Shown here piece by piece: positions 1-46,435 of a stretch of 64,000 nt of DNA. Source of the stretch: a virus; the UHGV virus genome UHGV-0141439; one strand, given 5' to 3'. The notes beneath the pieces are model-generated. The model saw nothing but the letters and a program-made list of their open reading frames with translations. It was not told the DNA's origin and did no database searches. Within the stretch, counting starts at the first letter, position 1; every line of letters starts with the position of its first letter. A program made the translations under genes and the position numbers.

Positions 1-229
1 GGCGAAATCCTGCATTCGTAAATACGGAACCGCCACCAACGAATGGTTCTATTAACCGCTTACCGTGTGGTAGATGCTCAAGCACTGTAGGCAATTCTGA
101 GAATTTACCACCTACCCATTTGAATATCGGACGCTCATATTCATCCGGAGTCCGAATGGTGCGCATATAGCTAATTTCAGCCATCGTATCCTGTTTTTCT
201 ATGGCTATGCTTGCTATAGATTTACTCAT
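1..229 (-). CDS. Dam-like N6-adenine DNA methyltransferase, N-terminal ~76 codons only (gene runs off window start)
   Basis: Reverse-strand ATG at 229-227 after a GGGGG RBS; hand translation MSKSIASI...PIFKWVGGKFSELPTVLEHLPHGKRLIEPFVGGGSVFTNAGF matches the Dam N-terminal motif (KWAGGK...VEPFxGxGSVF). Start overlaps the stop of the upstream gene. Confidence 0.7.
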   Translation of the reverse strand, partial: MSKSIASIAIEKQDTMAEISYMRTIRTPDEYERPIFKWVGGKFSELPTVLEHLPHGKRLIEPFVGGGSVFTNAGFR

Positions 230-3484: not shown

Positions 3485-4252
3485 TCACCCCATAGATATC
3501 GAGGTTTCGGTAATAATACGTTTTGCGTCCAACTCCCATGCTGTGATCACGTCTGCAATCACACTTATCGGCGCTTGTGTGGCATAAATACGCTCTTCTC
3601 CAATTGGTGCCGAAACATCCGTAAATCCGACTTCTTTGGCATCCTGTATCGAGCAAATCAGCGGGACCGGGACACGAACAAGGTGAGTGGTTGCTTCAAA
3701 TTGTGTACCTGTCATCAGGCGAAGCCGTGCGCCCAGCGAATTACACATCAGACTCATGGTCGCTTTATCAGTTGCCATTAACGTAACGTCATACGTCAGA
3801 ATGGCCTGGGTGTATTCCAGTTCTGCTAAAGGCATTCCGGTATCCGGTTCGCAAAAACTGGCTACTTTTTTGCGGTCAATCTGCTGATCATCGTTGATAT
3901 AATTGATATCCATAGTGCGTGAGATATTGACCAGGGGGAGAGCATCCCGGTTAATGTTCTGGTTTTCAGGTTTTCTCCCTTGCCCGGCATTTGCGCGACG
4001 AACTGCTTTAAGAAACTCGATCGCATTGTCGAAACGGGCCACATAGACACGCTCTGCTGGTGGACGATTCAGGAATGACGCAAAGCGTTTTTCTTCCGGC
4101 GCGGGGGCCACCAGTAAGATATCAGAAAAGATATTGCTGATTAGCGTAGCAAACGCGTTATCCACGTTTTCAAAGCCCGTGGTCTGGAATTTTCCTGTGC
4201 GTGAGGTTTGCCATTCACCTGTTCGCGCCAGGAGGGTTTTATTTGAAGTCAT
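3485..4252 (-). CDS. Hypothetical protein (operon member)
   Basis: 255-aa ORF; 4-nt overlap with the upstream gene. Confidence 0.4.
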   Translation of the reverse strand: MTSNKTLLARTGEWQTSRTGKFQTTGFENVDNAFATLISNIFSDILLVAPAPEEKRFASFLNRPPAERVYVARFDNAIEFLKAVRRANAGQGRKPENQNINRDALPLVNISRTMDINYINDDQQIDRKKVASFCEPDTGMPLAELEYTQAILTYDVTLMATDKATMSLMCNSLGARLRLMTGTQFEATTHLVRVPVPLICSIQDAKEVGFTDVSAPIGEERIYATQAPISVIADVITAWELDAKRIITETSISMG

Positions 4253-26633: not shown

Positions 26634-26650
26634 TGTTAGAAATTTAATTT
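26634..26650. promoter_or_regulatory. 17-bp operator-like site TGTTAGAAATTTAATTT
   Basis: Exact consensus; overlaps the cre stop. Confidence 0.5.
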
Positions 26651-27677
26651 ACGAATCCATCAGGCGGCTATTAGCCCCCACAGACACGCCGCCACGGCGA
26701 AGATACCGCATAAGTGTTTCCGGTTTCTTCCAGGTTCCTTCCTGCATGATCTCCACCATAGACACCTGCTTTTCAGCCATATCAATAGCGGCCCCGACGC
26801 GTGCACTATGCCCGGTCCACGTCCGGTATCTTCCTTTGTTTGGCGTAGCATCTCTTTTATTCAGCAACACCCAGGCGTCGCTGAATATTTTCTCCATTGC
26901 AGGTGCAGTAAGGGGCGTTGTCGTGATCCTGGCCTTATTGCTACGGTGTATCGGCGGGAACAGCACTGCGTCAGGATGTTCGCGAAGCCCGGAAACATCC
27001 AGCCAGTCATTCAGCACAGCGGTAGTGCGACGGGAAAGCACCTTATCAAGCCCGGCGGCGGTCGTTATTGTCTTCGTGTGTGAAATATGTAGCGTGACAG
27101 TGTCACCTGTTTGGTCCAGATCTCCTACACGAATACGCGAGATTTCCGACATACGCATCAGCGTATTGTATGCAACAAAGAGAAAAGCCCGGTTGCGCAG
27201 GTCCACCAGCCGTTCTGACCTGGACAACAGGACGTCGAGCAGTTTCAGATCGTCCCACCGCAGCGGTATAGCCTGGCCTGTTCGTTCGCCTTTTTCAGTT
27301 GCCGCTTCGCGCCGGATGCGCCGCATAGCCAGAGAAACACTTTTATCATCCGAAAGTGGCGGAAGGCCACAATGCGAAAGCAGCATGTTCAGCATGGCGT
27401 AGTGCTTATCAATGGTGGTCGAAGCCAGATCGGCATCATGCAGCTGAAGAAAATACTCGCGGGCCATTTCTGGTGAGATCGGAAACCAGGCAAGCTGGCG
27501 AGCGTGACACCAGCGCGCCCAGGAATGAAACACCAAACGGAGGTCGCGCAGAGTATTCGGCGCATAAGCTCCCTGGTCATTCATGAACCGCATAAAGTTT
27601 TCTGCGGCTTCCTGGTACTCTTTGCCAATGTTGCGCAGAAAACCACCGGAACTGCCAGAGATAATTAATTCACTCAT
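26649..27677 (-). CDS. cre: Cre-type tyrosine recombinase
   Basis: 342 aa, collinear with P1 Cre (WFP..PE..R(E/D)YLL, VSL(A/V)MRRIR, AYNTL(M/L)R..EI.RIRV.D, W(T/S)GHSARVGAA.DMA, EIMQ.G.W); lox-like site upstream. Confidence 0.85.
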   Translation of the reverse strand: MSELIISGSSGGFLRNIGKEYQEAAENFMRFMNDQGAYAPNTLRDLRLVFHSWARWCHARQLAWFPISPEMAREYFLQLHDADLASTTIDKHYAMLNMLLSHCGLPPLSDDKSVSLAMRRIRREAATEKGERTGQAIPLRWDDLKLLDVLLSRSERLVDLRNRAFLFVAYNTLMRMSEISRIRVGDLDQTGDTVTLHISHTKTITTAAGLDKVLSRRTTAVLNDWLDVSGLREHPDAVLFPPIHRSNKARITTTPLTAPAMEKIFSDAWVLLNKRDATPNKGRYRTWTGHSARVGAAIDMAEKQVSMVEIMQEGTWKKPETLMRYLRRGGVSVGANSRLMDS

Positions 27678-27828: not shown

Positions 27829-27862
27829 CTAACTTTAAATAATGCCAATTATCTAAAGTTAG
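27829..27862. other. lox-like site: 13-bp inverted repeats around an 8-bp spacer (CTAACTTTAAATA-ATGCCAAT-TATCTAAAGTTAG)
   Basis: Read directly; 12 of 13 arm positions are symmetric; about 150 bp upstream of cre; same 34-bp architecture as loxP but different sequence. Confidence 0.6.
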
Positions 27863-28062: not shown

Positions 28063-29100
28063 ATGAGTAAGAAGTCGATCGAGAAAGAGTACAAACGGTT
28101 CCTGCAAACCGCTGAACGGTGGAAAGAGCTGGTGGTCGCAAACTCTGTTTTCCATGATACCAGTTATTCCGGCGAGGAATTCCGCCATGTTGCACTAACA
28201 CATGATCAGAATGTGCTAGAAGAAGCTGAAAAGTGCCTCACAGAATGGAAAGCCTTTGTTGACTTGTGCCGTAACGCTGACGGCAAAGCGTCTAACATTG
28301 TTGAGTCTGTATATTCTCCGATCCCATTCATTATCGAGGACACAAATCAAAGCACGCATATTGTTGTGCAAAGCGCGACCACCACCCGCTCATTTACGCG
28401 CGAAAATCTGCTCAAAAAATATGATGCAATTATAAAGAAAAGCCTGAAAAACAAGATATTTTCGCAGATTGTTGGTGCACTTGAAGAAGAGCGCCGTTTT
28501 TTCGCATCAGAACCTGAAGGGGAAGTTTACCGGGCGCGCAAAGATGGATACACAGATGTAGTGCTTACAACAAACATTGAAGGCAGCAATGCTCTGTCAC
28601 GATTCAGGGTAGGCGCACACGGAGCCTTAGTGTTCGCAAAACTTCCGAACACCACAGTGCCCGTTGTTAATAATGTCGGCGAACGTCGCAGCATTACTAT
28701 TTATTCTGGGGTTGAGTCGATACCTTGCGGCCTGCTTGGTGACTTTAGTCTCTATCGCGTTCGCGATCTGGAGAAACACCAACCAAGCTATGTTGCGAAG
28801 TCATACATCTTGCGAAACATCGACATCCGCAATGAGAGCTTAAAGAACAAATCAGCCAAAATGCTTGAGGAAGCCGATCCGGCTATTCGCCATATCATTG
28901 AGCGTAAAATACAGACAGCACGCGAAGCGATGGCGAGACTGAATAAAATGGATCTGGAGTTGTTAGACGTAATGATGACATCCGGAGATGACCTGACAGG
29001 CATAAAACTGACAGACGCGCGGAAAAGATACGGTAAAACCATAGAAGAACGTTACGGGTTCACTTTCTCCCAAACACAGCACGCCGCTAAACTCTGGTAA
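28063..29100 (+). CDS. Hypothetical 345-aa protein; candidate C1-type immunity repressor by position only
   Basis: Convergent with pacB, next to lox and cre (the place c1 occupies in P1), with an operator-like site over its promoter; no sequence motif recognised. Confidence 0.4.
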   Translation: MSKKSIEKEYKRFLQTAERWKELVVANSVFHDTSYSGEEFRHVALTHDQNVLEEAEKCLTEWKAFVDLCRNADGKASNIVESVYSPIPFIIEDTNQSTHIVVQSATTTRSFTRENLLKKYDAIIKKSLKNKIFSQIVGALEEERRFFASEPEGEVYRARKDGYTDVVLTTNIEGSNALSRFRVGAHGALVFAKLPNTTVPVVNNVGERRSITIYSGVESIPCGLLGDFSLYRVRDLEKHQPSYVAKSYILRNIDIRNESLKNKSAKMLEEADPAIRHIIERKIQTAREAMARLNKMDLELLDVMMTSGDDLTGIKLTDARKRYGKTIEERYGFTFSQTQHAAKLW

Positions 29101-29171
29101 TCACAAGCCCCGCATTGCCGGGGCTTTATCCGGTGCGCCGTAAAACCCCGTCCTTCAGGGCGTGGAGGATG

Positions 29172-30680
29172 TCAAATATCCAGATCTGGCATTTCTACAT
29201 CTGCAAGAACCTGATCGCGGAAGGTAGCCATTTCAGCGCCGATATCTTCATTAGCAGGAACATAGTCCACCAGCATTGTAAAGCAGTAGGTATCCCATCG
29301 GTCAGGTGATTTGATGTTCAGCTTTTGCCGCATGTGCTCCTTGCGCATCATCGCCATCTTCCCTTCTTCATTAAGTAAAAAGGGGATTTTTGACGCTTGC
29401 TCTGCCGTTTTAGGGTCGCTGTCTATTCGCATACGACCTGACTTTATGGCATCACGAGCCATAATATTTGCGTAGGCACGCTGGTTAACAAAACGCTCCT
29501 TGTCTTTGTTCGAAAACATGGGTTTCCCCCACCGAATCCGTACCGGATTAGCCCCACGGCGCACCAGCTGCGCACAGGTATCTGAACCAAAACCGTCTGC
29601 GTCAACCGCGATTGTAATATTCGGGTATTTATCCGGCGTGCATTCGTTGTATATAAAGTCAGCAAAAGCCAGCGGGTCCATAGTCCCTGGCATTTCCATT
29701 ACCTTAAAGTTAACAACACGCCGCTTTTCCCGGTGACCAGACACTTTACAGATATTAAGAACTGACTTGTCTCGCCCGTTACCAACGTCAGCAGTAGCCA
29801 CCCATCCCCAGTTTTTCTCCAACAACACCTTGCGCCGCGCAGCGCGATCGCATTCATCACGACCAAGCAAATAGCCGTTAATCTCCCGAGGAAACTGACC
29901 AAGAACCTTGACCATGTACTCAATAGAATCGCGCCCGCCATATTCTAGGAGTTTCTGCCTGATGAATTGTGGTGTGACGAACGGTGATTCTTCTGAGTTA
30001 AGAACAATTGCTGTCCAGATCCCTTTCGGGTTGTCTGGGGTTTTAGCTTGAGAATGGTGCGAATCGTAGAAATAACCACTTGGCCTTGTTGGCTGGGATA
30101 GCATCAACATTCGGTTATCTTCTTCAGTCAGAGCGCCAGTCATTACGCCGATCGCTTTATCAGATATACCTGATGCTTCATCCAGAATTAGAAGCAAATG
30201 TGCCGCGTGCTCCCCCGCCAGAGCTTCTTCGTTACCGAGTCGATAGCCTTTGCAGAGAACTTCCCAGATCCCCTTTCGAGAGCGTTCATAAAACATGGTG
30301 TCAGACAGGACAAAATAGGTCTGTAACCACCCATGACGCTTAACGGCATTCGCCCAATACTGTTTAACGTATTTGAATACACCTGTCTTAACCTGACCTA
30401 TTTTGTTAGCAACAATGATGACACGGGCATCGGGGAACAGAATCAAATAAATCAGCAACAACATAGCCGTTAGCGACGATTTCCCTGTACCGTGACCAGA
30501 GGTAACAGTGGTTCTGCTCCCTTTTTGCTGTACGGACTGGATAATCTCCTGCTGCTGGTGGGAGGGAAACATCCCGAATATATCAACAACAGCCTGGGTA
30601 AAGTTGTAGCGGTATTTGATTACCATATCGCGCCAGCGTGGATCGCTGGTGACGCATTTAATCTTGCGCCCACCAGCCAT
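29172..30680 (-). CDS. pacB: Terminase large subunit (PacB-type)
   Basis: 502 aa; Walker A SGHGTGKSS, Walker B LLILDEAS; follows the pacA-like gene. Confidence 0.75.
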   Translation of the reverse strand: MAGGRKIKCVTSDPRWRDMVIKYRYNFTQAVVDIFGMFPSHQQQEIIQSVQQKGSRTTVTSGHGTGKSSLTAMLLLIYLILFPDARVIIVANKIGQVKTGVFKYVKQYWANAVKRHGWLQTYFVLSDTMFYERSRKGIWEVLCKGYRLGNEEALAGEHAAHLLLILDEASGISDKAIGVMTGALTEEDNRMLMLSQPTRPSGYFYDSHHSQAKTPDNPKGIWTAIVLNSEESPFVTPQFIRQKLLEYGGRDSIEYMVKVLGQFPREINGYLLGRDECDRAARRKVLLEKNWGWVATADVGNGRDKSVLNICKVSGHREKRRVVNFKVMEMPGTMDPLAFADFIYNECTPDKYPNITIAVDADGFGSDTCAQLVRRGANPVRIRWGKPMFSNKDKERFVNQRAYANIMARDAIKSGRMRIDSDPKTAEQASKIPFLLNEEGKMAMMRKEHMRQKLNIKSPDRWDTYCFTMLVDYVPANEDIGAEMATFRDQVLADVEMPDLDI

Positions 30681-32044
30681 TAGTCATCCTCCGGCGGTTC
30701 TATCGCAATATCATCATCTCCGGCGTCATACCCTGCATCTGATGCATCATAATCACCGTAAATTTCAGCCGTTGCCGAAGGGTCAATGTCCAACTCTTCA
30801 TCGTTGGCCTCGAATTCCCCAGCCTTACGCTCGCCATTGTGGTCGTAATCTCCGCACCCCAGATCTTCAACAATGGTTGCCACATCCGCCCGGCGCTCTG
30901 CCAGCCATTGCGGATGGTTAGCCTGAAGCGATGCAAACTCCTTCGCTTCTTTGTCCAGCTGTTCATCATCAACATCATTGATGTCAGAAACTGGAGGTTC
31001 GAGAAGAGTGATAGCTTTCGCCGCGCGCGCCGCGAGGATAGCCGGGACACTGACACCCTGACGCTCGATGTATTCAGCAACACCGATATCGTCCAGCTCC
31101 TCGCGCTCACGCATACGTATAGCGGCGGCGATAACTCTGGCTGCGCGTGCGTCAGCGCCAATGCGATATTCAATCTCTTTGCCACGCTGTTCGGCCTGTA
31201 GGCGTGCTAATTCGAGTTTTTCTCTGGCCTCGGCCTCTCTGAATGCTTGCTGGCGAGCACCCTGACGAAGTTTTTCATCACCCTGTCGCAGCTTTTGTTC
31301 GGACTGATATATCGCTGCCAACCTACTGATAAAATCGTTCATGTAGTAGGCCGCGTCACTGATTAGACCGAGAAGTCGCTGCCCAGGGTGCATTCCTTCT
31401 GGCTGTTCATCACCCAGGGCGTCTATCTCCGCCTGTAGGCGTTCGGCCTCCTGATCAACAATGCTTTGGTACTGAAGTGCGCGTTCTTGCGCCATTTGAA
31501 TTGCTAACCGCAGGTGCTCTTCTGCGCCGTTCTTCATCATGTCGCGAGCCACACTCGTAGTGGGCAACGTGGCACGCTGCACAGCACCGCCAGGGATCAT
31601 TGCTGAAGATCCCTCGATTTTTGAGGCGCATTTATCTTCGGTGGGGATCATTTTCGCCATTTTTTCGCGCAATGATCTCCTGACAGATTCTTTTATCTCA
31701 TTGTTATTATTTGCATTATTTTCATGATCCGAAGTTTTCTTTCTCGGCATACTTCGGAAAGAACCTGTGCCCTGCGAATTGTCAATTTCTGTAAATTTTG
31801 TTGTTTCTGTACCCTCTTCTGGTCTTTTTTTTGCTCTTCCTGCCCGTTTTTTTTGAGGTGATTTGGTGCTTTTTTTTGTAGTCTTCACCTGCGACCGCAC
31901 CTCATTTTTTTTCATATTGAGATGCTTTCTGGCGGTATTGAAGCTAAGGTCGTGTTGCTCGCAGTATTCCTTTACGGTGATCCCTTTTTCTTCACGCAAC
32001 GCTATAAATTTGGCGCGGTGCTCTTCCCAATTAACCAGACTCAT
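30680..32044 (-). CDS. pacA: Terminase small subunit (PacA-type) with acidic C-terminus
   Basis: 454 aa; N-terminal HTH-like segment; stop overlaps the pacB start; contains a GATC cluster. Confidence 0.55.
   Translation of the reverse strand: MSLVNWEEHRAKFIALREEKGITVKEYCEQHDLSFNTARKHLNMKKNEVRSQVKTTKKSTKSPQKKRAGRAKKRPEEGTETTKFTEIDNSQGTGSFRSMPRKKTSDHENNANNNNEIKESVRRSLREKMAKMIPTEDKCASKIEGSSAMIPGGAVQRATLPTTSVARDMMKNGAEEHLRLAIQMAQERALQYQSIVDQEAERLQAEIDALGDEQPEGMHPGQRLLGLISDAAYYMNDFISRLAAIYQSEQKLRQGDEKLRQGARQQAFREAEAREKLELARLQAEQRGKEIEYRIGADARAARVIAAAIRMREREELDDIGVAEYIERQGVSVPAILAARAAKAITLLEPPVSDINDVDDEQLDKEAKEFASLQANHPQWLAERRADVATIVEDLGCGDYDHNGERKAGEFEANDEELDIDPSATAEIYGDYDASDAGYDAGDDDIAIEPPEDD
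31595..31729. other. Cluster of five GATC sites (TGATC(C/T) repeats in both orientations) inside pacA: candidate pac site
   Basis: GATC at 31595, 31608, 31646, 31674 and 31726; GGGATCATT occurs twice. Confidence 0.4.
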
Positions 32045-32433
32045 AAAGCAACACCACGCTTTTTAACGGCGGCATTCCACAGCTTATTCGCCATGTCCAC
32101 CAGCTCTCGTTGCTCTTTTCGCGCCTGTTCGACTGATTTCCTGCTACAGTTTTTAACCAGTAAGCTACCGTATTCAGGGGTGCGCCCGCGCACCTTGAAC
32201 TGATATCCGTTCAGGCCATGCAACCAGTATTTCCGTGGGTAAACACGATCATCAAGCTCACAAATAGCTCGGCTTGACCGCACAAAATGCCGAATGATGT
32301 TGGTTACACTTACTCGTGAAACATGAAGGTGAGGATATTTTTCTTTAGCTAGAGTGGTGATTTCGGTGACTGTCAGATAGCAGTCAGCCCTAATCATGAT
32401 ATCCGCAATTTCTGCGCTGCTGATATGCTCCAT
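32041..32433 (-). CDS. Lpa-like late-promoter activator candidate (by position upstream of pacA)
   Basis: 130-aa ORF overlapping the pacA start (ATGA); an operator pair lies upstream. Confidence 0.4.
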   Translation of the reverse strand: MEHISSAEIADIMIRADCYLTVTEITTLAKEKYPHLHVSRVSVTNIIRHFVRSSRAICELDDRVYPRKYWLHGLNGYQFKVRGRTPEYGSLLVKNCSRKSVEQARKEQRELVDMANKLWNAAVKKRGVAL

Positions 32434-32541: not shown

Positions 32542-32934
32542 CTACCAGCGAGATAAGCGAACGACGTGTTTTACCTTAGCGATCCACTTACCACGTGAGT
32601 TATTAATTACGGCCTGCGCCACCTTTAAGCTGACTTCAAAATCAGCCTTACGACCATCAGAATCCACCAGCGTTGCACCGTCTATTTCCGGCAGGCTTAA
32701 ATAATCCTGTTCTACCTCTAATGGCATTGACGGCTCTCTGAATGGTGTCAATTGCCGAGCTTTCCAGATAAAGCGAACTCTCAATCCCCTATAAGCCATT
32801 ACCATGTAGCCTGTTATCGTGCTCTTATGGCCTGCATCAGTACGCGCAGCATTACACGATACAATCTTACAGGTGACGATATTCCACTCCACGTTGGAGA
32901 CTTCGTGAATGCTTAATTTTGTTGTCTCGTACAT
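32542..32934 (-). CDS. Hypothetical protein
   Basis: 130-aa ORF. Confidence 0.4.
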   Translation of the reverse strand: MYETTKLSIHEVSNVEWNIVTCKIVSCNAARTDAGHKSTITGYMVMAYRGLRVRFIWKARQLTPFREPSMPLEVEQDYLSLPEIDGATLVDSDGRKADFEVSLKVAQAVINNSRGKWIAKVKHVVRLSRW

Positions 32935-33509
32935 CAGAATGCCTCCCAGTCAGTTGCGATAATATCCACGCCAGTTGCGAACCAGTCTGTCTGCGCCTGT
33001 AAATCCCCATTCATCATTACCAGGCGAGGCATAACCATCACATCGCACCCTTCCACAATATCGAATGCCTCTTCCGGCAAGAATTCGAAGAGCTTTTCTT
33101 TGCTGCCAATGCTGCCACGGAACATCGATAAATAGCTCCCTTTAGGCCATGATGCCCGGCGGGCATCCAGCCCCTTCATCATCCAGAACATGGCGGCAGA
33201 AAAATTGATGTTCTTTTTGGCGATGAAAACATTATTGGCTTCTGTTTGCTTCAGAAACTTAATTAGCCTTGCCATCGACTCGGATAACGCTACGTATGGC
33301 TCATGATTGGCTGCGGACACGCTCACACCATGTAATCCAACACTGACTACCGTCATATCGCCGCTTTGAGCGGTTTCAATGTTGACACCTTTGCGAACTA
33401 ACGAGGCATAAAGTTCCTCTCGCTTTTGTGTCCAGCGTTCCCGCTGACCGATGAAGTCACTCAATATGAGGTCTGCTTCTGCATACGCGTTATCGTTCGC
33501 CGTTAACAT
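32934..33509 (-). CDS. Hypothetical protein
   Basis: 191-aa ORF; AAAAGGAG RBS. Confidence 0.4.
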   Translation of the reverse strand: MLTANDNAYAEADLILSDFIGQRERWTQKREELYASLVRKGVNIETAQSGDMTVVSVGLHGVSVSAANHEPYVALSESMARLIKFLKQTEANNVFIAKKNINFSAAMFWMMKGLDARRASWPKGSYLSMFRGSIGSKEKLFEFLPEEAFDIVEGCDVMVMPRLVMMNGDLQAQTDWFATGVDIIATDWEAF

Positions 33510-39595: not shown

Positions 39596-42500
39596 TTAGG
39601 CCGCATCGGCGATTATTTTACGCAGTTCATCTACCGAGTAACGCGTAGATACCATCCACGCCGGACGGTCAAAGTTCACATCAGCAACCGGGTTTGCTTC
39701 AAAATTCCAGAAACGCCCGCCAATCTTCTTAATCGCGTCTTTGGCGTTCCGTATTGTCGAGGAACCTGGCTGGTCGGCAATGAGATAAACCGCGCCAACG
39801 TCTTCGCTGACGCTCCACCAGCGCCCGCGAACACGCGCCTTAGCGCGAATCGGCTTATCATTAACCACAATGATATAGTCATCATTCGCCGCTTCATCAG
39901 CTCTGGCTTCAGCCACTGCCGCCTGCTCTTCTCTTTTGCTTTCAGCCTGCTCAAGCCTTTCCGCGATCTCTGATTCAGTGGCCCCGCCGTTTTTCAGCGA
40001 TACATAGTCCTGCCACGTTGCCGATTTGAGCGCATCCGGCAACTCATTCACATAGTCGCCGTCTTTCAACTCACGGGCGCGACGGGTAGCCATTTCTACC
40101 AGGCGATTAACAGAAACAGCATCAGCAAAATCGTCCTTACTAATGTGTTTTTCATCAAATGCATTGATGACAGCCCCCACCTTAATCCACTGTGCTGCTG
40201 GCGAATCCAGAGGATTATCGGCCTGAACAATGGCTAATTTCGCTCCATCGACACCATTATTAGCCAGCTGCTCCAATGCCGACCAGCCATCGGCATCGCT
40301 GAGTGATTTATATTGCTCAAACAATGCATCGCGCCAGGCCACCAGCGCAGCTCGTGTTTTCTCAATTTTCGCCGTAATTTTCGCGGCCTTCACCTGATTA
40401 AACATCCGTTCAATGTCATCAGTGTTGCTAAAGGCTTTCATCCTGCCCTGGAATAAACGGTATGCCACCACGGTCTTCCAGAAAGATTCCAGCCCTTCTC
40501 CGGACGGTTTACGGAACAGGCTAAGAATATCTTCAGAAGTAACTTTATTAAGTGAGCGACCGGACAAACCACGCCCTGCCATCCAGTTTTCAAACTCCTG
40601 GGAAACATCATCCATCGTGGCCTGTGACCCCCATGCCTGCATTCCCTGGATGTAATCATATCCATACAATGCCTGGAGGAATCCCTCTCCGTCCACGATA
40701 TTCAGCGGGTTATCACTGGCTTGTATTTTTGCCACTTCACGCTTCAGCGCCTCATCGTTGCCATCAGGGTAAATCCACCGCTCAGGCGCTATATCCGATG
40801 CTCGCCCGATTTTTTGACCTATTACGCCATCATAAGCCGATGACAGTGCAATCTGACCATCATCGGTGCGATAAGCCCAGTATTTAATAGCTGAACCACC
40901 GCCCCATACTCTACCAGGCTTCCCGGCAGTGACATTCATTACCCCATTGCGAATAGCATCATAGAACTGATCGCGCGTAAGTGTTGTTGATAGCTGGTGG
41001 CATTGAACACCACGTGCAGCTGTTTCACGCGATTCTGCAACTCCCTCTTCAAAGGTTACCGATTCAATTATCAGGTTAAAGGGCAAAAATAATGCCGTCC
41101 CCGGAGAACGAGAGTAACGACTAGCCACATCCAGCCAGGATATGCGGCACGTACACCCGCCCCTTTCCGCATCAATGGCGGTAACACGAACAATTGCTGT
41201 CGTATTGTGATTCTCATCGATGATCGCGCGATAATGGCTGCCCTTGTGCAACAAGATATTTTTCTCAGTGCGTACATACTCCTGTGGGTTCTGCAATACA
41301 TCGGCATCAAGCTCCAGAACCCCGGCTTTAATCGCACGTTCCAGATCACCACGAGAACGTTTCATAACGGTGTCAGCGTCTTTAGCTCTGGTGATCGCAA
41401 AGCGTAGCTCCCGCACACGTTTTCTGTAGTCTCGCAACTGTTCCAGAACATATTTCTGCCCGTTCCTGTTCGTCCCCGCTTTAATCAGGTCGTCAACATT
41501 GCGCTGGTAATGCTCTACCTGCTCCATCGCGCTTTTCAGTTCAGTCTCCATCATGCCGATATCTTTCCCGGCAGCATTCGCCGCTTTCAGGTAGTTATCG
41601 AGAGCATTATTGGCTTCGCGTAGGGCTTTCAGTTTCAGACGTTCTTCACGCTCTTGCGCCTGACGACTCATGATTGCACGGCGTTCTTCCGGATTTGCCG
41701 CCAGCATAATGGCGCGTTCATCTGCGTCATCCGCATCACCATTGGCGATCTCTGACATGTCGGAGGTCATCACCATATTGATCCAGTCCTTCTTACGTTT
41801 CAGCGTATCCAGACGGAAGTCATCAAATGTGCCTTTGCCACAATAGTAGTGAACATTGACCTTTTCTTGTGGTGAGCCTACCCGAGCGCCGCGTCCATTA
41901 CGTTGGTCGATACTGGCAGGAGTCCAGGGTAGTGTCAGATGGTGGATATCGGTTGTCCCGATGTGCAAGTTAATACCTACTTCAGCCTTCTTGTTACAGA
42001 TTATGATGCGCGTGCGACCTTCGTTATAGTCGGCGGCAATACCTTCCATGCCCTCAAGGCCAGCATCATTTTTAGCTGAGAGATAATCCTCATATTGGGC
42101 AAGTTTGCTGTAGTAGGTTTCCCATGCACCTTCTTTGTATTCACCGTTTTTATTTGGCGTAGGTTCAGTCGGCTTATTCACCTTCTTCAGCTTGACGCCG
42201 CCAGCCTGGCTAACTGTCGTCGCATTGATAATGCCTATCTCCTGCTCCGGCATTTGCAGTGCACTGGCAATAATACGGCGCAGCTTCTGGTGCTGGGCTT
42301 TTTCATCAATGAAGACGATTTGTTTACCGTTCTTCAGACCTTCACGAAGGTTTTCGATCAGCGCGGCATACTTCGGCGGGATGGGGTGTGATACCTGCTG
42401 CATATCAATACCGGCAGCCGCAATGGCCTTCAGTATTTCAGCTTCCAGTTCAATGCCAGCACGTATTTCAACATGCGACGGATGTTCGCTAAAGGTGGTC

Positions 42501-45500
42501 TTCACTACCTTGCTGGTACGCGTACTGACCAGCCCACCAGCGCCATCTTCTTCGGCATCGTCTACATCATCTGCCACTTTACCGCCAGCTACTTTTGGCA
42601 GGGCATCAGCAATAGCTTTTACCTTGTCTGCAAGCTCAACGGGGAACTGGAATGTAATCGCACTGGCATACAGATCAGGATCTATAGCAACCTTATCCAT
42701 GTCGCGGATGATGGAGAAGATGAAATCATCCGGTTTTTCGTTTGTGATATGCCCGTTTTCATCGACCGTCAGCGCATCTTTACTGCTTAACTCCTGTGCA
42801 CGCTTACGAAGTTCTTCGTAAATGGCCTCTTGCTCTCCTGTCATCGGGATCTGCAAGGTATTCTCGACAATATCAGGGATTTTTACCGTCGCCCCGACGT
42901 CAGCAGCAGTCTTCAGAGTAGTCCAGCGATGGAAAATACCACGCAGACCATCCAGGTTCTGGAAGCCCACCAGTCCCTGCTTCTCTTCCACCTCACCGGA
43001 AATTTTCTGAACCTGAACTGTGGCTGTTTTACCGAACACGCGAACGAAATCATCCGGCGTAACAATACCCATGCGCATCCACTCTTCCTGCGGAATGACA
43101 GTAGACAGCATGTTGAAAGCATCAATCGGGCTGTTCACCAGCGGTGTTGCCGTCAGCATAACCACACCACGCCCGTTGTTGCGTTTCATCATGTACGCAG
43201 CTTTTACAGCCATGTCGCGGGCCATTTTGGATACTGCCGGGTTAGGCAAATATGCCAGTTGCCCCGCTTCGCGCCCGGCGCTAAAGGAGTTGCGGTAGTT
43301 ATGCCCTTCGTCGGCAATTACGCTATCGAAGTTCATATCCTCAAAGTACGGGATATTCTGCTTCTTCGTTGTACCGGTATTTGCGGCCTGGTCCTTAATC
43401 TTGTTCTTCTTCTGCGCGTCACGGTGTTTGCCAGATGCCAGGTCAAGACGCCCCATTTCCACAGCATTAAAGACCGCTTGCTGTGAGTTTTCCTCAATGG
43501 TTTCTTCTCGTAGCGGGATAGACGCGAATTGCTCTTTTGTCATGATGACCGTTCGCCAATTTGACGACGGGATCATGTTCATGCGCTGAACGATAACGGC
43601 GCTGGCGGACTCTTTCACAACATTTCTGGTAAGAGCCTGCCCGTTACTGTCGAGGCGTGGTTCGCCATTTTCATCAAGCACCGGCGCGGTCAGAATATTT
43701 CCGCTGTCATCACGAACTTCATCCAAACCGATAAACATCATATTGGCGAAGGCATCAGCACTGTAGAAACTCTGTGCCTCGTGATACCAGTTCTGATAAA
43801 CCGCCTTCGGAACAACAATACACGTGCGTTTAGTGCGACCTGTTTCGAAGTTATACGCCTCAAGCGCAAGCGCGGTCGTGGTTTTACCCAGCCCGGTGCC
43901 AAATCCCATGATGCCGCGCCCATCTTCTGATAAGCGACGAACTTCTTCATTCTGATAAGTCAGAGGAATGCGCTTCCCACTAATCCCCTCCAGGCCAAGC
44001 GGTGCGTCAGAATGCGTAAACGGGATGAAGCCATTAAATGCGTCGTTATAGTCGCGGGCTATCTGATCAGCCTGCGGGTGAGTGCGTAACCAGTCGTTGA
44101 AGCTAATTTCCAGTTGAGCAATCTTATCCAGGTACTCGTTAGCGTTCTGCCCACGCGGTTTAATGCCGTTCAGGTAGTTTTCTAACTGGTTCAGGAAGCC
44201 GTCTTTATTGTTGGCCTTCTTGAACTCATTCCCGTTTTTGCCGTTTACGGTTCGTAGTTGATAGCCAGTAAATACCCCGTCCTTACCTTCGTAATCGTCC
44301 GGAGATACCAGAATGCCGTCCTCAACCTTAAGGTCGGGTTCTGTATACTTAAACTCGTCATAGCCTTGCTCTGCCAGGAACTCTTTTATCAAGCGGCGAT
44401 CCAGCCAGCGGGCGTTCAGATTAACGGTGACTTTATTTAGTGGCGTGAAAATGCGTTTCTCTTCGATTTTCGCCAACTGACGCTCAAAGTTCGCTTTCTG
44501 CTCACCTGTTGACGCATCACGCCAGCCCACCAGCAATGCTGTTTTGGTTGCAATATCGCCGCTGGTGGCGCGGTCCATAGGCAGCAGGCAGCCATACCCA
44601 TCAATAGCGATATCATCAAATTTCGCCAGGTATTCCAGAGCAGCATCGTCGTCTCCTGGCAGTTCGCCAGCAAACGCCTCACGAAAATAGTCCAGTGTGA
44701 TTGGATTAAGTGCCACGTCACTGAAAAGGTGGGTTACAACTTGTTCCGGGCGTGTAAAGTCAATACCGGCAGCACCATCCGTTACATCAAGTCGTCCAGC
44801 AAGGAGGTCAGAAGCAGAGCCGTCCTGTTTCACGTTGCCAGTGAAAGTCATCCAGTTTTTAGCGCCAGCTTCAGCAATCCCATTCAGCTTAATCGCGTGC
44901 GGCGGACCATACTTCGCAATTTCGGCTTCCGCCAGGCGCGCGGCATCAGCAAGTTCATCATCAACATTTTCCCCCAGATTACGCTTATCAAGCGCCTTGT
45001 TGATCAACTGCCCTATCAGTGCGCCGCGCATAACGCGTTCTCTGTCTTTTTCTCTCTGCTTGCCAGCAAAGCGAATCATTGCCGCTACTTCATCACTGAT
45101 AACCGACGGATAGTCGGACGCGATCGCCGATATCTGGTCCCATGACAACGCCAGAATGCCATTTGTTGACTGAAACGCGATCTGCAGATCACCAAACGTC
45201 GTAACACCATATCGATTTACATCAAGCGCGGAGGATTTGGTTGTCGCGTCCTTGACCCATTTCAGACCATCAAACTCATGCCAGATGCCGCCTACAAGGC
45301 GTTTATCGCCCACTTTCGCGCCCTGCCATGCCTGAGTAGTTACGCCAAGCAAATCCCAATTAATGCGGCTTTCAAAGCGGCGCGATAGAGCGGTTTTCAT
45401 CGACTCATTGGATACACGACCGTCCTTTTTCACCACCAGGGTATTGCGGAAGCTGGTACGCTCCATATCGCCGTAAACAAATCGCTTCCCTTCGGTTGTA

Positions 45501-46435
45501 AACCATTTCCCTTTGAGGAAGGTATCCCAAAGGACGTTTGCCGACTTGAGCGTTGCATCATCCGTGTCGGGGATCATCTCCAGGAAGGTTTCCGGGTGTT
45601 TACGCAATACCCATACGTCCACCACTGTATCTGTACCGGATTCGCTGAACGTACCAGAAGGCATACGATGTGCGCCCAAAAATTCCGCTTTACGGCTGAC
45701 TTTATCGCGCAATTTTTTGTATTTCGTACCATCGGTCATGCCATTCGGCACCACCAATACAATTAGTCCACCAGGCTTAACCTTGTCGATCGTGCGCAGC
45801 ACAAAATAATTGCCAACGTTCTTCTCGTTTGCATATGCCGGATCAAGCCCGGCGACACCGGAACGCCCTTCGCCAAACGGTACGTTACCAACAGCATGGT
45901 CATACATTGCGTCTTTCGCCGCCAGAGCTTCAAACGCCCCGATATTCACATCGTCTTCCGGGTGCAAAAGCTGGTTTATTCGACCGGAAATCGGAGACAG
46001 TTCGGCGCTGGTCATTATCATGCCCTGCCGTTTTGTCTCCTGGAAAATACCTGTGCCCGCTGATGGTTCCAGTACGTGCCCACCATCAATACCGTAGTCA
46101 GCAAACAGATCCCATATACCTTCAGCCATAAACTGTGGCGTGTAGTATTCGTATTGGCTGCCCTCACCATCTGTCAGGCCACCTTCACCGGTATACCCGG
46201 CAAGAATCTGACGTTGTTCGTCAGTTAATTTCGCCCCATCGAAGCCGGGCGGAAGGGAATTAAGAAGATTTACTGCGGCATTGTTTGCTGCCCGGCGTGT
46301 TTTCTGAATACTGACGCCATCGGCTTTCCTGACGCCAAAGGTCGCAACAGCACGTAATTTATGCAACCGACTAACAATTTCAATCAGTTCGCCTAAGCTG
46401 GAGGCTTCACTGATTGAATGAAGTAGTTTGTCCAA
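39596..46435 (-). CDS. darB: DarB-like giant methyltransferase-helicase (2279 aa)
   Basis: N-terminal N6-MTase motifs (VLEPSAGTGIF; NVPF) and C-terminal SF2 helicase motifs (GTGLGKT, DEGH, TATP, QRNGRGAR); size close to P1 DarB; TTG start after a GAGGGGG RBS. Confidence 0.7.
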   Translation of the reverse strand: MDKLLHSISEASSLGELIEIVSRLHKLRAVATFGVRKADGVSIQKTRRAANNAAVNLLNSLPPGFDGAKLTDEQRQILAGYTGEGGLTDGEGSQYEYYTPQFMAEGIWDLFADYGIDGGHVLEPSAGTGIFQETKRQGMIMTSAELSPISGRINQLLHPEDDVNIGAFEALAAKDAMYDHAVGNVPFGEGRSGVAGLDPAYANEKNVGNYFVLRTIDKVKPGGLIVLVVPNGMTDGTKYKKLRDKVSRKAEFLGAHRMPSGTFSESGTDTVVDVWVLRKHPETFLEMIPDTDDATLKSANVLWDTFLKGKWFTTEGKRFVYGDMERTSFRNTLVVKKDGRVSNESMKTALSRRFESRINWDLLGVTTQAWQGAKVGDKRLVGGIWHEFDGLKWVKDATTKSSALDVNRYGVTTFGDLQIAFQSTNGILALSWDQISAIASDYPSVISDEVAAMIRFAGKQREKDRERVMRGALIGQLINKALDKRNLGENVDDELADAARLAEAEIAKYGPPHAIKLNGIAEAGAKNWMTFTGNVKQDGSASDLLAGRLDVTDGAAGIDFTRPEQVVTHLFSDVALNPITLDYFREAFAGELPGDDDAALEYLAKFDDIAIDGYGCLLPMDRATSGDIATKTALLVGWRDASTGEQKANFERQLAKIEEKRIFTPLNKVTVNLNARWLDRRLIKEFLAEQGYDEFKYTEPDLKVEDGILVSPDDYEGKDGVFTGYQLRTVNGKNGNEFKKANNKDGFLNQLENYLNGIKPRGQNANEYLDKIAQLEISFNDWLRTHPQADQIARDYNDAFNGFIPFTHSDAPLGLEGISGKRIPLTYQNEEVRRLSEDGRGIMGFGTGLGKTTTALALEAYNFETGRTKRTCIVVPKAVYQNWYHEAQSFYSADAFANMMFIGLDEVRDDSGNILTAPVLDENGEPRLDSNGQALTRNVVKESASAVIVQRMNMIPSSNWRTVIMTKEQFASIPLREETIEENSQQAVFNAVEMGRLDLASGKHRDAQKKNKIKDQAANTGTTKKQNIPYFEDMNFDSVIADEGHNYRNSFSAGREAGQLAYLPNPAVSKMARDMAVKAAYMMKRNNGRGVVMLTATPLVNSPIDAFNMLSTVIPQEEWMRMGIVTPDDFVRVFGKTATVQVQKISGEVEEKQGLVGFQNLDGLRGIFHRWTTLKTAADVGATVKIPDIVENTLQIPMTGEQEAIYEELRKRAQELSSKDALTVDENGHITNEKPDDFIFSIIRDMDKVAIDPDLYASAITFQFPVELADKVKAIADALPKVAGGKVADDVDDAEEDGAGGLVSTRTSKVVKTTFSEHPSHVEIRAGIELEAEILKAIAAAGIDMQQVSHPIPPKYAALIENLREGLKNGKQIVFIDEKAQHQKLRRIIASALQMPEQEIGIINATTVSQAGGVKLKKVNKPTEPTPNKNGEYKEGAWETYYSKLAQYEDYLSAKNDAGLEGMEGIAADYNEGRTRIIICNKKAEVGINLHIGTTDIHHLTLPWTPASIDQRNGRGARVGSPQEKVNVHYYCGKGTFDDFRLDTLKRKKDWINMVMTSDMSEIANGDADDADERAIMLAANPEERRAIMSRQAQEREERLKLKALREANNALDNYLKAANAAGKDIGMMETELKSAMEQVEHYQRNVDDLIKAGTNRNGQKYVLEQLRDYRKRVRELRFAITRAKDADTVMKRSRGDLERAIKAGVLELDADVLQNPQEYVRTEKNILLHKGSHYRAIIDENHNTTAIVRVTAIDAERGGCTCRISWLDVASRYSRSPGTALFLPFNLIIESVTFEEGVAESRETAARGVQCHQLSTTLTRDQFYDAIRNGVMNVTAGKPGRVWGGGSAIKYWAYRTDDGQIALSSAYDGVIGQKIGRASDIAPERWIYPDGNDEALKREVAKIQASDNPLNIVDGEGFLQALYGYDYIQGMQAWGSQATMDDVSQEFENWMAGRGLSGRSLNKVTSEDILSLFRKPSGEGLESFWKTVVAYRLFQGRMKAFSNTDDIERMFNQVKAAKITAKIEKTRAALVAWRDALFEQYKSLSDADGWSALEQLANNGVDGAKLAIVQADNPLDSPAAQWIKVGAVINAFDEKHISKDDFADAVSVNRLVEMATRRARELKDGDYVNELPDALKSATWQDYVSLKNGGATESEIAERLEQAESKREEQAAVAEARADEAANDDYIIVVNDKPIRAKARVRGRWWSVSEDVGAVYLIADQPGSSTIRNAKDAIKKIGGRFWNFEANPVADVNFDRPAWMVSTRYSVDELRKIIADAA

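Follow-up and report, generated by a model that had tools for sequence, protein, structure and literature searches.

A conserved GATC array inside pacA is a candidate packaging site of D6-type phage-plasmids

Where does DNA packaging begin in phage-plasmids that resemble P1 but carry a diverged recognition subunit of the pacase? The question is raised by a stretch of 64,000 nucleotides (nt) of the virus genome UHGV-0141439, analysed here at its full length and referred to as the window. The lpa-pacA-pacB segment of the window shows 92.7% identity to Escherichia phage D6, and its pacA is 100% identical to that of the Escherichia coli plasmid pEHP91H1-2, the gene table of which agrees with the coordinates of the open reading frames (ORFs) around pacA. 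Judged by these matches, the window is a D6-like, P1-related phage-plasmid. Within its pacA gene lies an array of GATC-containing elements, and we propose, with a probability of roughly 0.6, that this array is the D6-type pac, the packaging initiation site, which would be bound by PacA, cut by PacB and probably gated by adenine methylation as in P1. In its elements and layout it appears to be a diverged variant of P1 pac, not a copy. A full-text literature search found no description of a D6 pac site, although an earlier description may exist, and no pac annotation is present in the public D6 GenBank records, although rox is annotated there, between dre and c1.

The GATC tetramers were located relative to the coding sequence of pacA. 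The result showed that GATC starts at 31595, 31608, 31646, 31674 and 31726 of the window, corresponding to pacA nt 447, 434, 396, 368 and 316, a span of 135 base pairs (bp). An earlier, sequence-only reading of the window had placed five GATC at 31595-31729, all inside pacA, and these positions were confirmed; the duplicated GGGATCATT that it reported was found at 31593-31601 and 31644-31652, and its opposite-orientation elements at 31673-31678 (TGATCT) and 31725-31730 (TGATCC). The array lies within the 5' third of pacA and upstream of pacB, which is the location of a P1-type pac. The gene, the array and its elements are as follows.

30680..32044, minus strand: pacA, recognition (small-terminase-like) subunit of the pacase, 454 amino acids
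31593..31731, no strand assigned: candidate pac site with five GATC-containing elements, pacA nt 314-452 of 1365
3715-3849 of D6 (MF356679): counterpart of window 31590-31735
31722..31731, plus strand: site 1, TCATGATCCG, GATC at 31726-31729 (pacA nt 316), reverse with respect to the coding strand, encoding D-H in frame 0, GGATCA invariant
31670..31679, plus strand: site 2, CAATGATCTC, GATC at 31674-31677 (pacA nt 368), reverse, GATCATT invariant
31644..31653, minus strand: site 3, AAATGATCCC, GATC at 31646-31649 (pacA nt 396), forward, encoding M-I-P, a 10-nt invariant run
31604..31613, plus strand: site 4, TGAAGATCCC, GATC at 31608-31611 (pacA nt 434), reverse, forming a near-palindrome with site 5
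31593..31602, minus strand: site 5, CAATGATCCC, GATC at 31595-31598 (pacA nt 447), forward, encoding M-I-P, AATGATCCC invariant
31694..31706, minus strand: weak and speculative element resembling a site for integration host factor (IHF), TAACAATGAGATA, between sites 1 and 2, with two mismatches to WATCAANNNNTTR, ATAACA invariant
31975..31984, plus strand: possible outlying sixth element, CGGTGATCCC, GATC at 31979-31982 (pacA nt 63), in the conserved region coding for the N-terminal helix-turn-helix

Comparison of the five sites showed that they are copies of an asymmetric element of ~10 bp with the consensus AAATGATCCC / GGGATCATTT and a GATC core in each; read as hexamers, they comprise three TGATCC, one TGATCT and one AGATCC. 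Along the coding strand, sites 1 to 5 are oriented reverse, reverse, forward, reverse and forward. The spacing between them is fixed at 52, 28, 38 and 13 bp, with about five helical turns between the reverse sites 1 and 2 and likewise between the forward sites 3 and 5. Together with the near-palindrome of sites 4 and 5, the fixed spacing suggests a defined multi-subunit nucleoprotein complex. The outlying CGGTGATCCC is present in all D6-type copies; however, the more distant pacA of the Enterobacter hormaechei p60214CZ_1 type (the L009 type, described below) keeps the residues G-I-T without GATC, and protein constraint may therefore account for this sixth element.

Conservation was determined in a pacA set comprising D6, plasmids at 97, 95, 85, 76, 75, 75, 70 and 67% nucleotide identity, and 28 full-length IMG/VR copies. 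The results showed that GATC occupies the identical five pacA positions in all D6-type clades, including clades that are 70-76% identical overall; in the frameshifted copies L005 and L004 the sites are displaced by 4-5 nt and by up to 3 nt, respectively. Between the window clade and the divergent clades, identity falls to ~64% over the linker-coding nt 131-520. In this interval, among eight sequences from four clades, the GATC columns were invariant at 20 of 20 positions compared with 42% of the background columns, and fully invariant tetramer positions amounted to only 15%. The longest invariant runs of the interval include GGATCA, GATCATT, AAATGATCCC and AATGATCCC, and at site 4 just three flanking bases are invariant besides the GATC core. 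A match to the 10-mer at nine or ten of its ten positions is seen for three or four of the five sites in the 75% clades, where site 2 is a perfect AAATGATCCC. All five sites are kept in 26 of the 28 IMG/VR D6-type copies, while the other GATCs of pacA (nt 589, 634, 681, 1032, 1147 and 1180) are lineage-specific. Its conservation across relatives indicates that the array is not a product of chance.

Such conservation might also arise if the array had no function as DNA and its GATCs were by-products of conserved PacA residues, for example the repeated M-I-P, or of shared ancestry. M-I-P is indeed conserved twice in the protein, even in the 55%-identical L009 type. Translation of the array showed that the five sites span three reading frames, in which sites 1 to 5 encode D-H, R/G-S-L/F, M-I-P, G/R-S-S and M-I-P, respectively; the reverse complement of the 8-10-nt element thus falls in two frames other than that of M-I-P, where unrelated residues are encoded. 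The occurrence of the same element in both orientations and in three reading frames argues that the constraint acts on the DNA and not on the protein. Synonymous positions within GATC are frozen, whereas neighbouring ones are saturated: the Ile codon of M-I-P is always ATC, and the third position of the adjacent Pro codon shows all four bases. Immediately ahead of GATC in sites 2 and 4, a base change swaps Arg and Gly with GATC retained, so a change from Arg to Gly is tolerated there. In the protein alignment, the invariant residues of amino acids 103-159 are nearly all encoded by the elements (D106, S124, M132-I133-P134 and M149-I150-P151), and the surrounding linker is otherwise highly variable. 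A single-sequence AlphaFold model of PacA gave a confident helical N-terminal domain (amino acids 1-57) and low confidence for amino acids 58-110 and 133-170, which is weak evidence that the PacA segment encoded by the array, itself poorly conserved, is a flexible linker able to tolerate a DNA signal. An origin of the GATCs from protein sequence or ancestry is, in our judgement, highly improbable.

The sequence-only reading had also described the cluster as far above chance, which is borne out by conservation across relatives but not by the count of sites. GATC is locally ~10 times as dense as the window average of 1 per 288 bp. Nowhere in the window, the complete D6 genome or the 100%-identical plasmid are five GATCs packed more densely than in the array, and the independent five-site clusters that come next span 253-331 bp. 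When 222 GATC were placed randomly in 64 kb, some cluster of five in 135 bp appeared in 20% of the trials, and the same chance for the whole 90-kb genome is ~30%. This window-wide P of about 0.2 is a further point for an array that has no DNA function. For a pre-specified segment of 520 bp, the 5' part of pacA, the cluster probability was 0.0016. Because the raw count is not significant across the window or the genome, it was not relied on. Clustering of an octamer was tried and rejected: ATGATCCC at ≤1 mismatch occurs at chance level over the window (54 versus 52 expected), and its five matches within 139 bp are a circular result, since the motif came from the cluster itself.

If the array is a pac site, methylation need not control it, and GATC could merely be the core of the sequence that PacA recognizes. 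This is the main alternative to a methylation-gated pac, and we regard it as unlikely, though it deserves weight. In agreement with it, the invariant run at most sites exceeds GATC (as in GGATCA, GATCATT and the 10-mer of site 3), as would be seen for a protein-binding motif, and the overall GATC count of the window is not unusual. At site 4, in contrast, little beyond the GATC core is invariant, and in very divergent PacA genes GATC-centred repeats recur with differing flanks (TGATCA versus GGATCAT). Moreover, these elements encode a Dam-family methylase of their own, the start of which lies at the edge of the window.

1..184, minus strand: 5' end of the gene for a D12-class (Dam-family) N6-adenine methyltransferase, 61 codons, the rest beyond the window edge

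The first 61 residues (2..184, minus strand) match PF02086 (E=5e-9), and the complete homologue is D6 orf63 (301 amino acids, E=2e-56), the annotation of which names a site-specific DNA-adenine methylase resembling P1 dmt. The Dam-like methyltransferase predicted by the sequence-only reading is a D12-class gene, although only this short part of it falls within the window. In P1, pac is described as spanning 161 bp and containing seven TGATCA/G repeats that include Dam sites; it is bound when hemimethylated and cleaved when methylated (PMC10028697). Cleavage of P1 pac is reported to require Dam methylation, which speaks against a site free of methylation control, and in dam-negative hosts P1 cannot do without its own methylase (PMC12707154). 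A DarB-like protein of 2279 amino acids (39596..46435, minus strand) with SNF2/helicase domains was also observed in the window; it has a marginal match to an N6-adenine methylase family (PF02384, 20.2 bits against a cut-off of 20.4) and may give the phage-plasmid another adenine methylase activity.

Methylation might, alternatively, act on the array without any relation to cutting. SeqA and methylation-sensitive regulators classically act on clustered GATC, as at oriC and P1 oriR, and the array lies on the transcription path of lpa-pacA-pacB, so a Dam/SeqA-sensitive element could serve as an internal or antisense promoter, or as a sequestration site timing pacA/pacB expression or replication. 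However, a promoter/terminator scan gave nothing convincing within the array, and the replication genes are elsewhere, with a repL-like gene at ~48.6-49.6 kb in the window and repB outside it. In addition, an extended asymmetric 10-bp element with fixed orientations exceeds what SeqA needs, and the position of the array agrees with that of the proven pac in the homologous P1 gene. A regulatory element of this kind is distinctly unlikely.

Several observations weigh against the identification of the array as a methylation-gated pac. The P1 hexamer TGATCA/G does not occur at any of the five sites, only the GATC core being common to both, and the bipartite 4+3 layout of P1 with its central cleavage region is absent. 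The IHF consensus WATCAANNNNTTR was not found at ≤1 mismatch in the first 520 nt of D6-type pacA, although TAACAATGAGATA resembles the annotated P1 pac IHF site AAACAAAGAGTTA. Two IMG/VR copies have lost a site by a T-to-C change of GATC to GACC, L031 at site 2 and L047 at site 3, implying either that single sites are dispensable or that these copies are packaging-defective. The raw cluster count is without genome-wide significance (P about 0.2-0.3), and that the phage methylase acts on GATC is an assumption based on the family to which it belongs. Of the P1-like pac that had been suggested from the sequence alone, the position within pacA and the methylase hold, whereas the TGATCA/G repeats and the 4+3 layout do not; a pac site is still the reading with the best support.

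The genes around the array were compared with those of P1 and with protein family databases. Both cognate subunits, PacA and PacB, are encoded beside the array, as for a P1-type pac. PacA matches phrog_1711, a terminase family of PHROG (E=5e-178), and the ORF 30680..32044 carries the pacA annotation in phage D6 and ~120 plasmids; no family was found for PacA in Pfam or NCBIfam, and a scan of GTDB representative genomes yielded no relatives. PacA has 21% identity to P1 PacA (BLASTP, E=2e-9), compared with 56% between PacB and P1 PacB, a difference that fits a changed recognition element. The neighbouring features are as follows.

32041..32433, minus strand: lpa, late-promoter activator (PF25716, E=1e-56)
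29172..30680, minus strand: pacB, large terminase/nuclease-ATPase subunit, 502 amino acids, directly downstream of pacA
28063..29100, plus strand: c1
27830..27861, plus strand: rox, the Dre recombination site, with one mismatch to the D6 rox sequence, a base of the right arm (ATTATCTAAAGTTA versus ATTATTTAAAGTTA)
26649..27677, minus strand: dre

In the packaging mechanism that we propose for the array, the N-terminal helix-turn-helix domain of PacA would bind the five elements, and the PacA-PacB pacase would cut near them, either in the 52-bp spacer that holds the IHF-like element (31694-31706) or between sites 2 and 3, where the centre of symmetry falls (~31662). Headful packaging would then run toward pacB, c1 and rox. 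The array and rox are 3.7 kb apart, with rox on the pacB/c1 side, the placement also seen for P1 lox, which fits packaging toward the recombination site, a direction inferred from this arrangement. The terminal redundancy of the first headful would hold two copies of rox, on which Dre could act to circularise the DNA. Adenine methylation of the GATC core, by host Dam or by the phage D12-class methylase, would gate cleavage as in P1, and with such gating not every pac copy of a concatemer would be cut.

A break in one assembly was considered as a proxy for a virion end. In IMG genome 2537562191, contig _000026 (L048) ends at pacA nt 329, and L062, apparently the start of contig _000021, sets in at pacA nt 320, so that the two overlap by 10 nt (ATGAAAATAA). 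The assembly break therefore lies 1-10 nt after the GATC of site 1, at window 31716-31725. This case is anecdotal and only suggestive, as the chance of such a coincidence among ~30 fragmented assemblies is ~0.1-0.2 by a rough estimate, and the boundaries of IMG loci are storage chunks, not contig ends. Ten other loci in the same scan (L052, L059, L063-L065, L067, L070, L075, L079 and L082) showed no similarity to the lpa-pacA-pacB region.

Some features of the neighbourhood were recorded independently of the array. The stop codon of lpa overlaps the start codon of pacA (ATGA) at window 32041-32044, whereas in P1 the late promoter LPpac sits in the gap between lpa and pacA; the overlap suggests that D6-type pacAB may be co-transcribed with lpa. 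At the 3' end of pacB, 52 bp (29126-29177) are 98% identical to a segment annotated as 'hypothetical protein' in many Stx-converting phages, and this stretch is adjoined by a bidirectional terminator-like hairpin at ~29106-29128. Two genes upstream of lpa, an ORF of 191 amino acids (32934..33509, minus strand) contains a Tad2-like (Thoeris anti-defence 2) domain (PF11195, E=1.5e-9); it corresponds to D6 orf6, which is labelled there as hypothetical only.

The distribution of the array region was also determined. Region 31440-31800 was found in 99 of 5,426 complete E. coli genomes, always plasmid-borne and always in single copy, with 18 of the 99 in a divergent band of 60-80% identity, and the D6-type region occurs in Salmonella and Shigella as well. 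If the position of pac is known, the packaging direction and the terminally redundant genes become predictable, as does the host or plasmid DNA transducible from pseudo-pac sites, and the design of phagemids for D6-type rather than P1 capsids would be aided. The array would extend a known mechanism to common, little-studied phage-plasmids, the mechanism itself not being new. A bolder and still tentative idea, to which we give somewhat less than even odds, is that the D6-type pac and pacase form a pair that has been rebuilt and is orthogonal to that of P1: a one-sided array of asymmetric 10-bp elements, in inverted pairs at fixed helical spacing, would be read by a diverged PacA, and the methylatable GATC core would be the only universal feature. 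If this is true, GATC methylation and not the hexamer would be the ancestral essential part of this class of packaging signal, and phagemid delivery would gain a second pac module that does not cross-react.

Packaging sites within or next to the small-terminase gene are known from P22 (gene 3), SPP1 (gene 1) and Sf6, in which unidirectional headful packaging starts at pac. None of them is known to contain GATC repeats or to be controlled by methylation, and the small terminases concerned are unrelated in sequence to PacA; what they share with the D6 type is a recognition site in or beside the gene for the small terminase itself.

The closest model remains P1, in which cleavage of pac requires PacA, PacB and IHF/HU. 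The P1 record annotates the pac cleavage points and the IHF site inside pacA, and pac, 161-162 bp in length, occupies pacA nt 195-353, with four TGATCA at nt 195-229 and TGATCG/TGATCA/TGATCA at nt 325-348. Like P1 pac, the D6-type array lies in the linker-coding 5' third of pacA, upstream of pacB, consists of multiple short repeats with a GATC core and is accompanied by a phage-encoded Dam-family methylase, and the order lpa-pacA-pacB-c1-recombination site is the same. BLASTP alignment placed the S-D-H of site 1, which uses the same codons (GAT CAT), within four codons of the S-D-D-H that a right-cluster hexamer encodes at P1 pacA nt 337; the D6-type array thus starts at the position of the P1 right cluster and then runs ~130 nt downstream. 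The two sites differ in that the D6-type repeat is an asymmetric 8-10-mer, AAATGATCCC / GGGATCATTT, whereas that of P1 is the palindromic TGATCA, and in that the D6 type has one 135-bp array with inverted pairs, compared with 4 + 3 repeats around a ~90-bp spacer in P1. The D6-type array is also displaced by ~100-120 nt toward the 3' end of pacA, and nothing at nt 150-240 of the D6-type gene corresponds to the P1 left cluster. Finally, the D6 type lacks a good IHF consensus, its PacA is the less conserved subunit at only 21% identity, and its site is a candidate predicted from sequence.

In other Enterobacterales phage-plasmids with more distant PacA, unannotated GATC clusters were likewise seen in this part of pacA, at nt 150-240 and 320-380. 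Pantoea agglomerans pPA-MXU-90 has a pacA (L018 1501-2775, plus strand) with seven TGATCA-type hexamers at nt 154-214 and 237, followed by a further two at nt 363 and 379; six of them, at nt 154, 166, 178, 190, 202 and 214, keep an exact spacing of 12 bp and encode a repeated (S/G/N)DH peptide, and this array is an unannotated candidate for a P1-like pac. Four hexamers at nt 192-234 and one at nt 351 were found in the pacA of Enterobacter kobei, three at nt 175-192 and one at nt 318 in that of Leclercia pE1_003, and an unannotated GATC cluster in that of Citrobacter. The Pantoea, Leclercia and E. kobei types thus combine P1-like TGATCA hexamers with a left cluster at nt 150-240, whereas the D6 type has only the right-hand array. 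The E. hormaechei p60214CZ_1 type (L009 1494-2870, minus strand; also the IMG/VR contigs L045 and L051), at 54-55% protein identity, has the same GGGATCATT element as the D6 type, with three left sites at nt 157-181 and five right sites at nt 380-471, and looks like an intermediate between the P1 and D6 layouts. Across the family, the common features are the GATC core and its location, while flanks, copy number and layout vary. The persistence of the GATC core while flanks and layout change across the PacA family supports methylation as the conserved regulatory principle.

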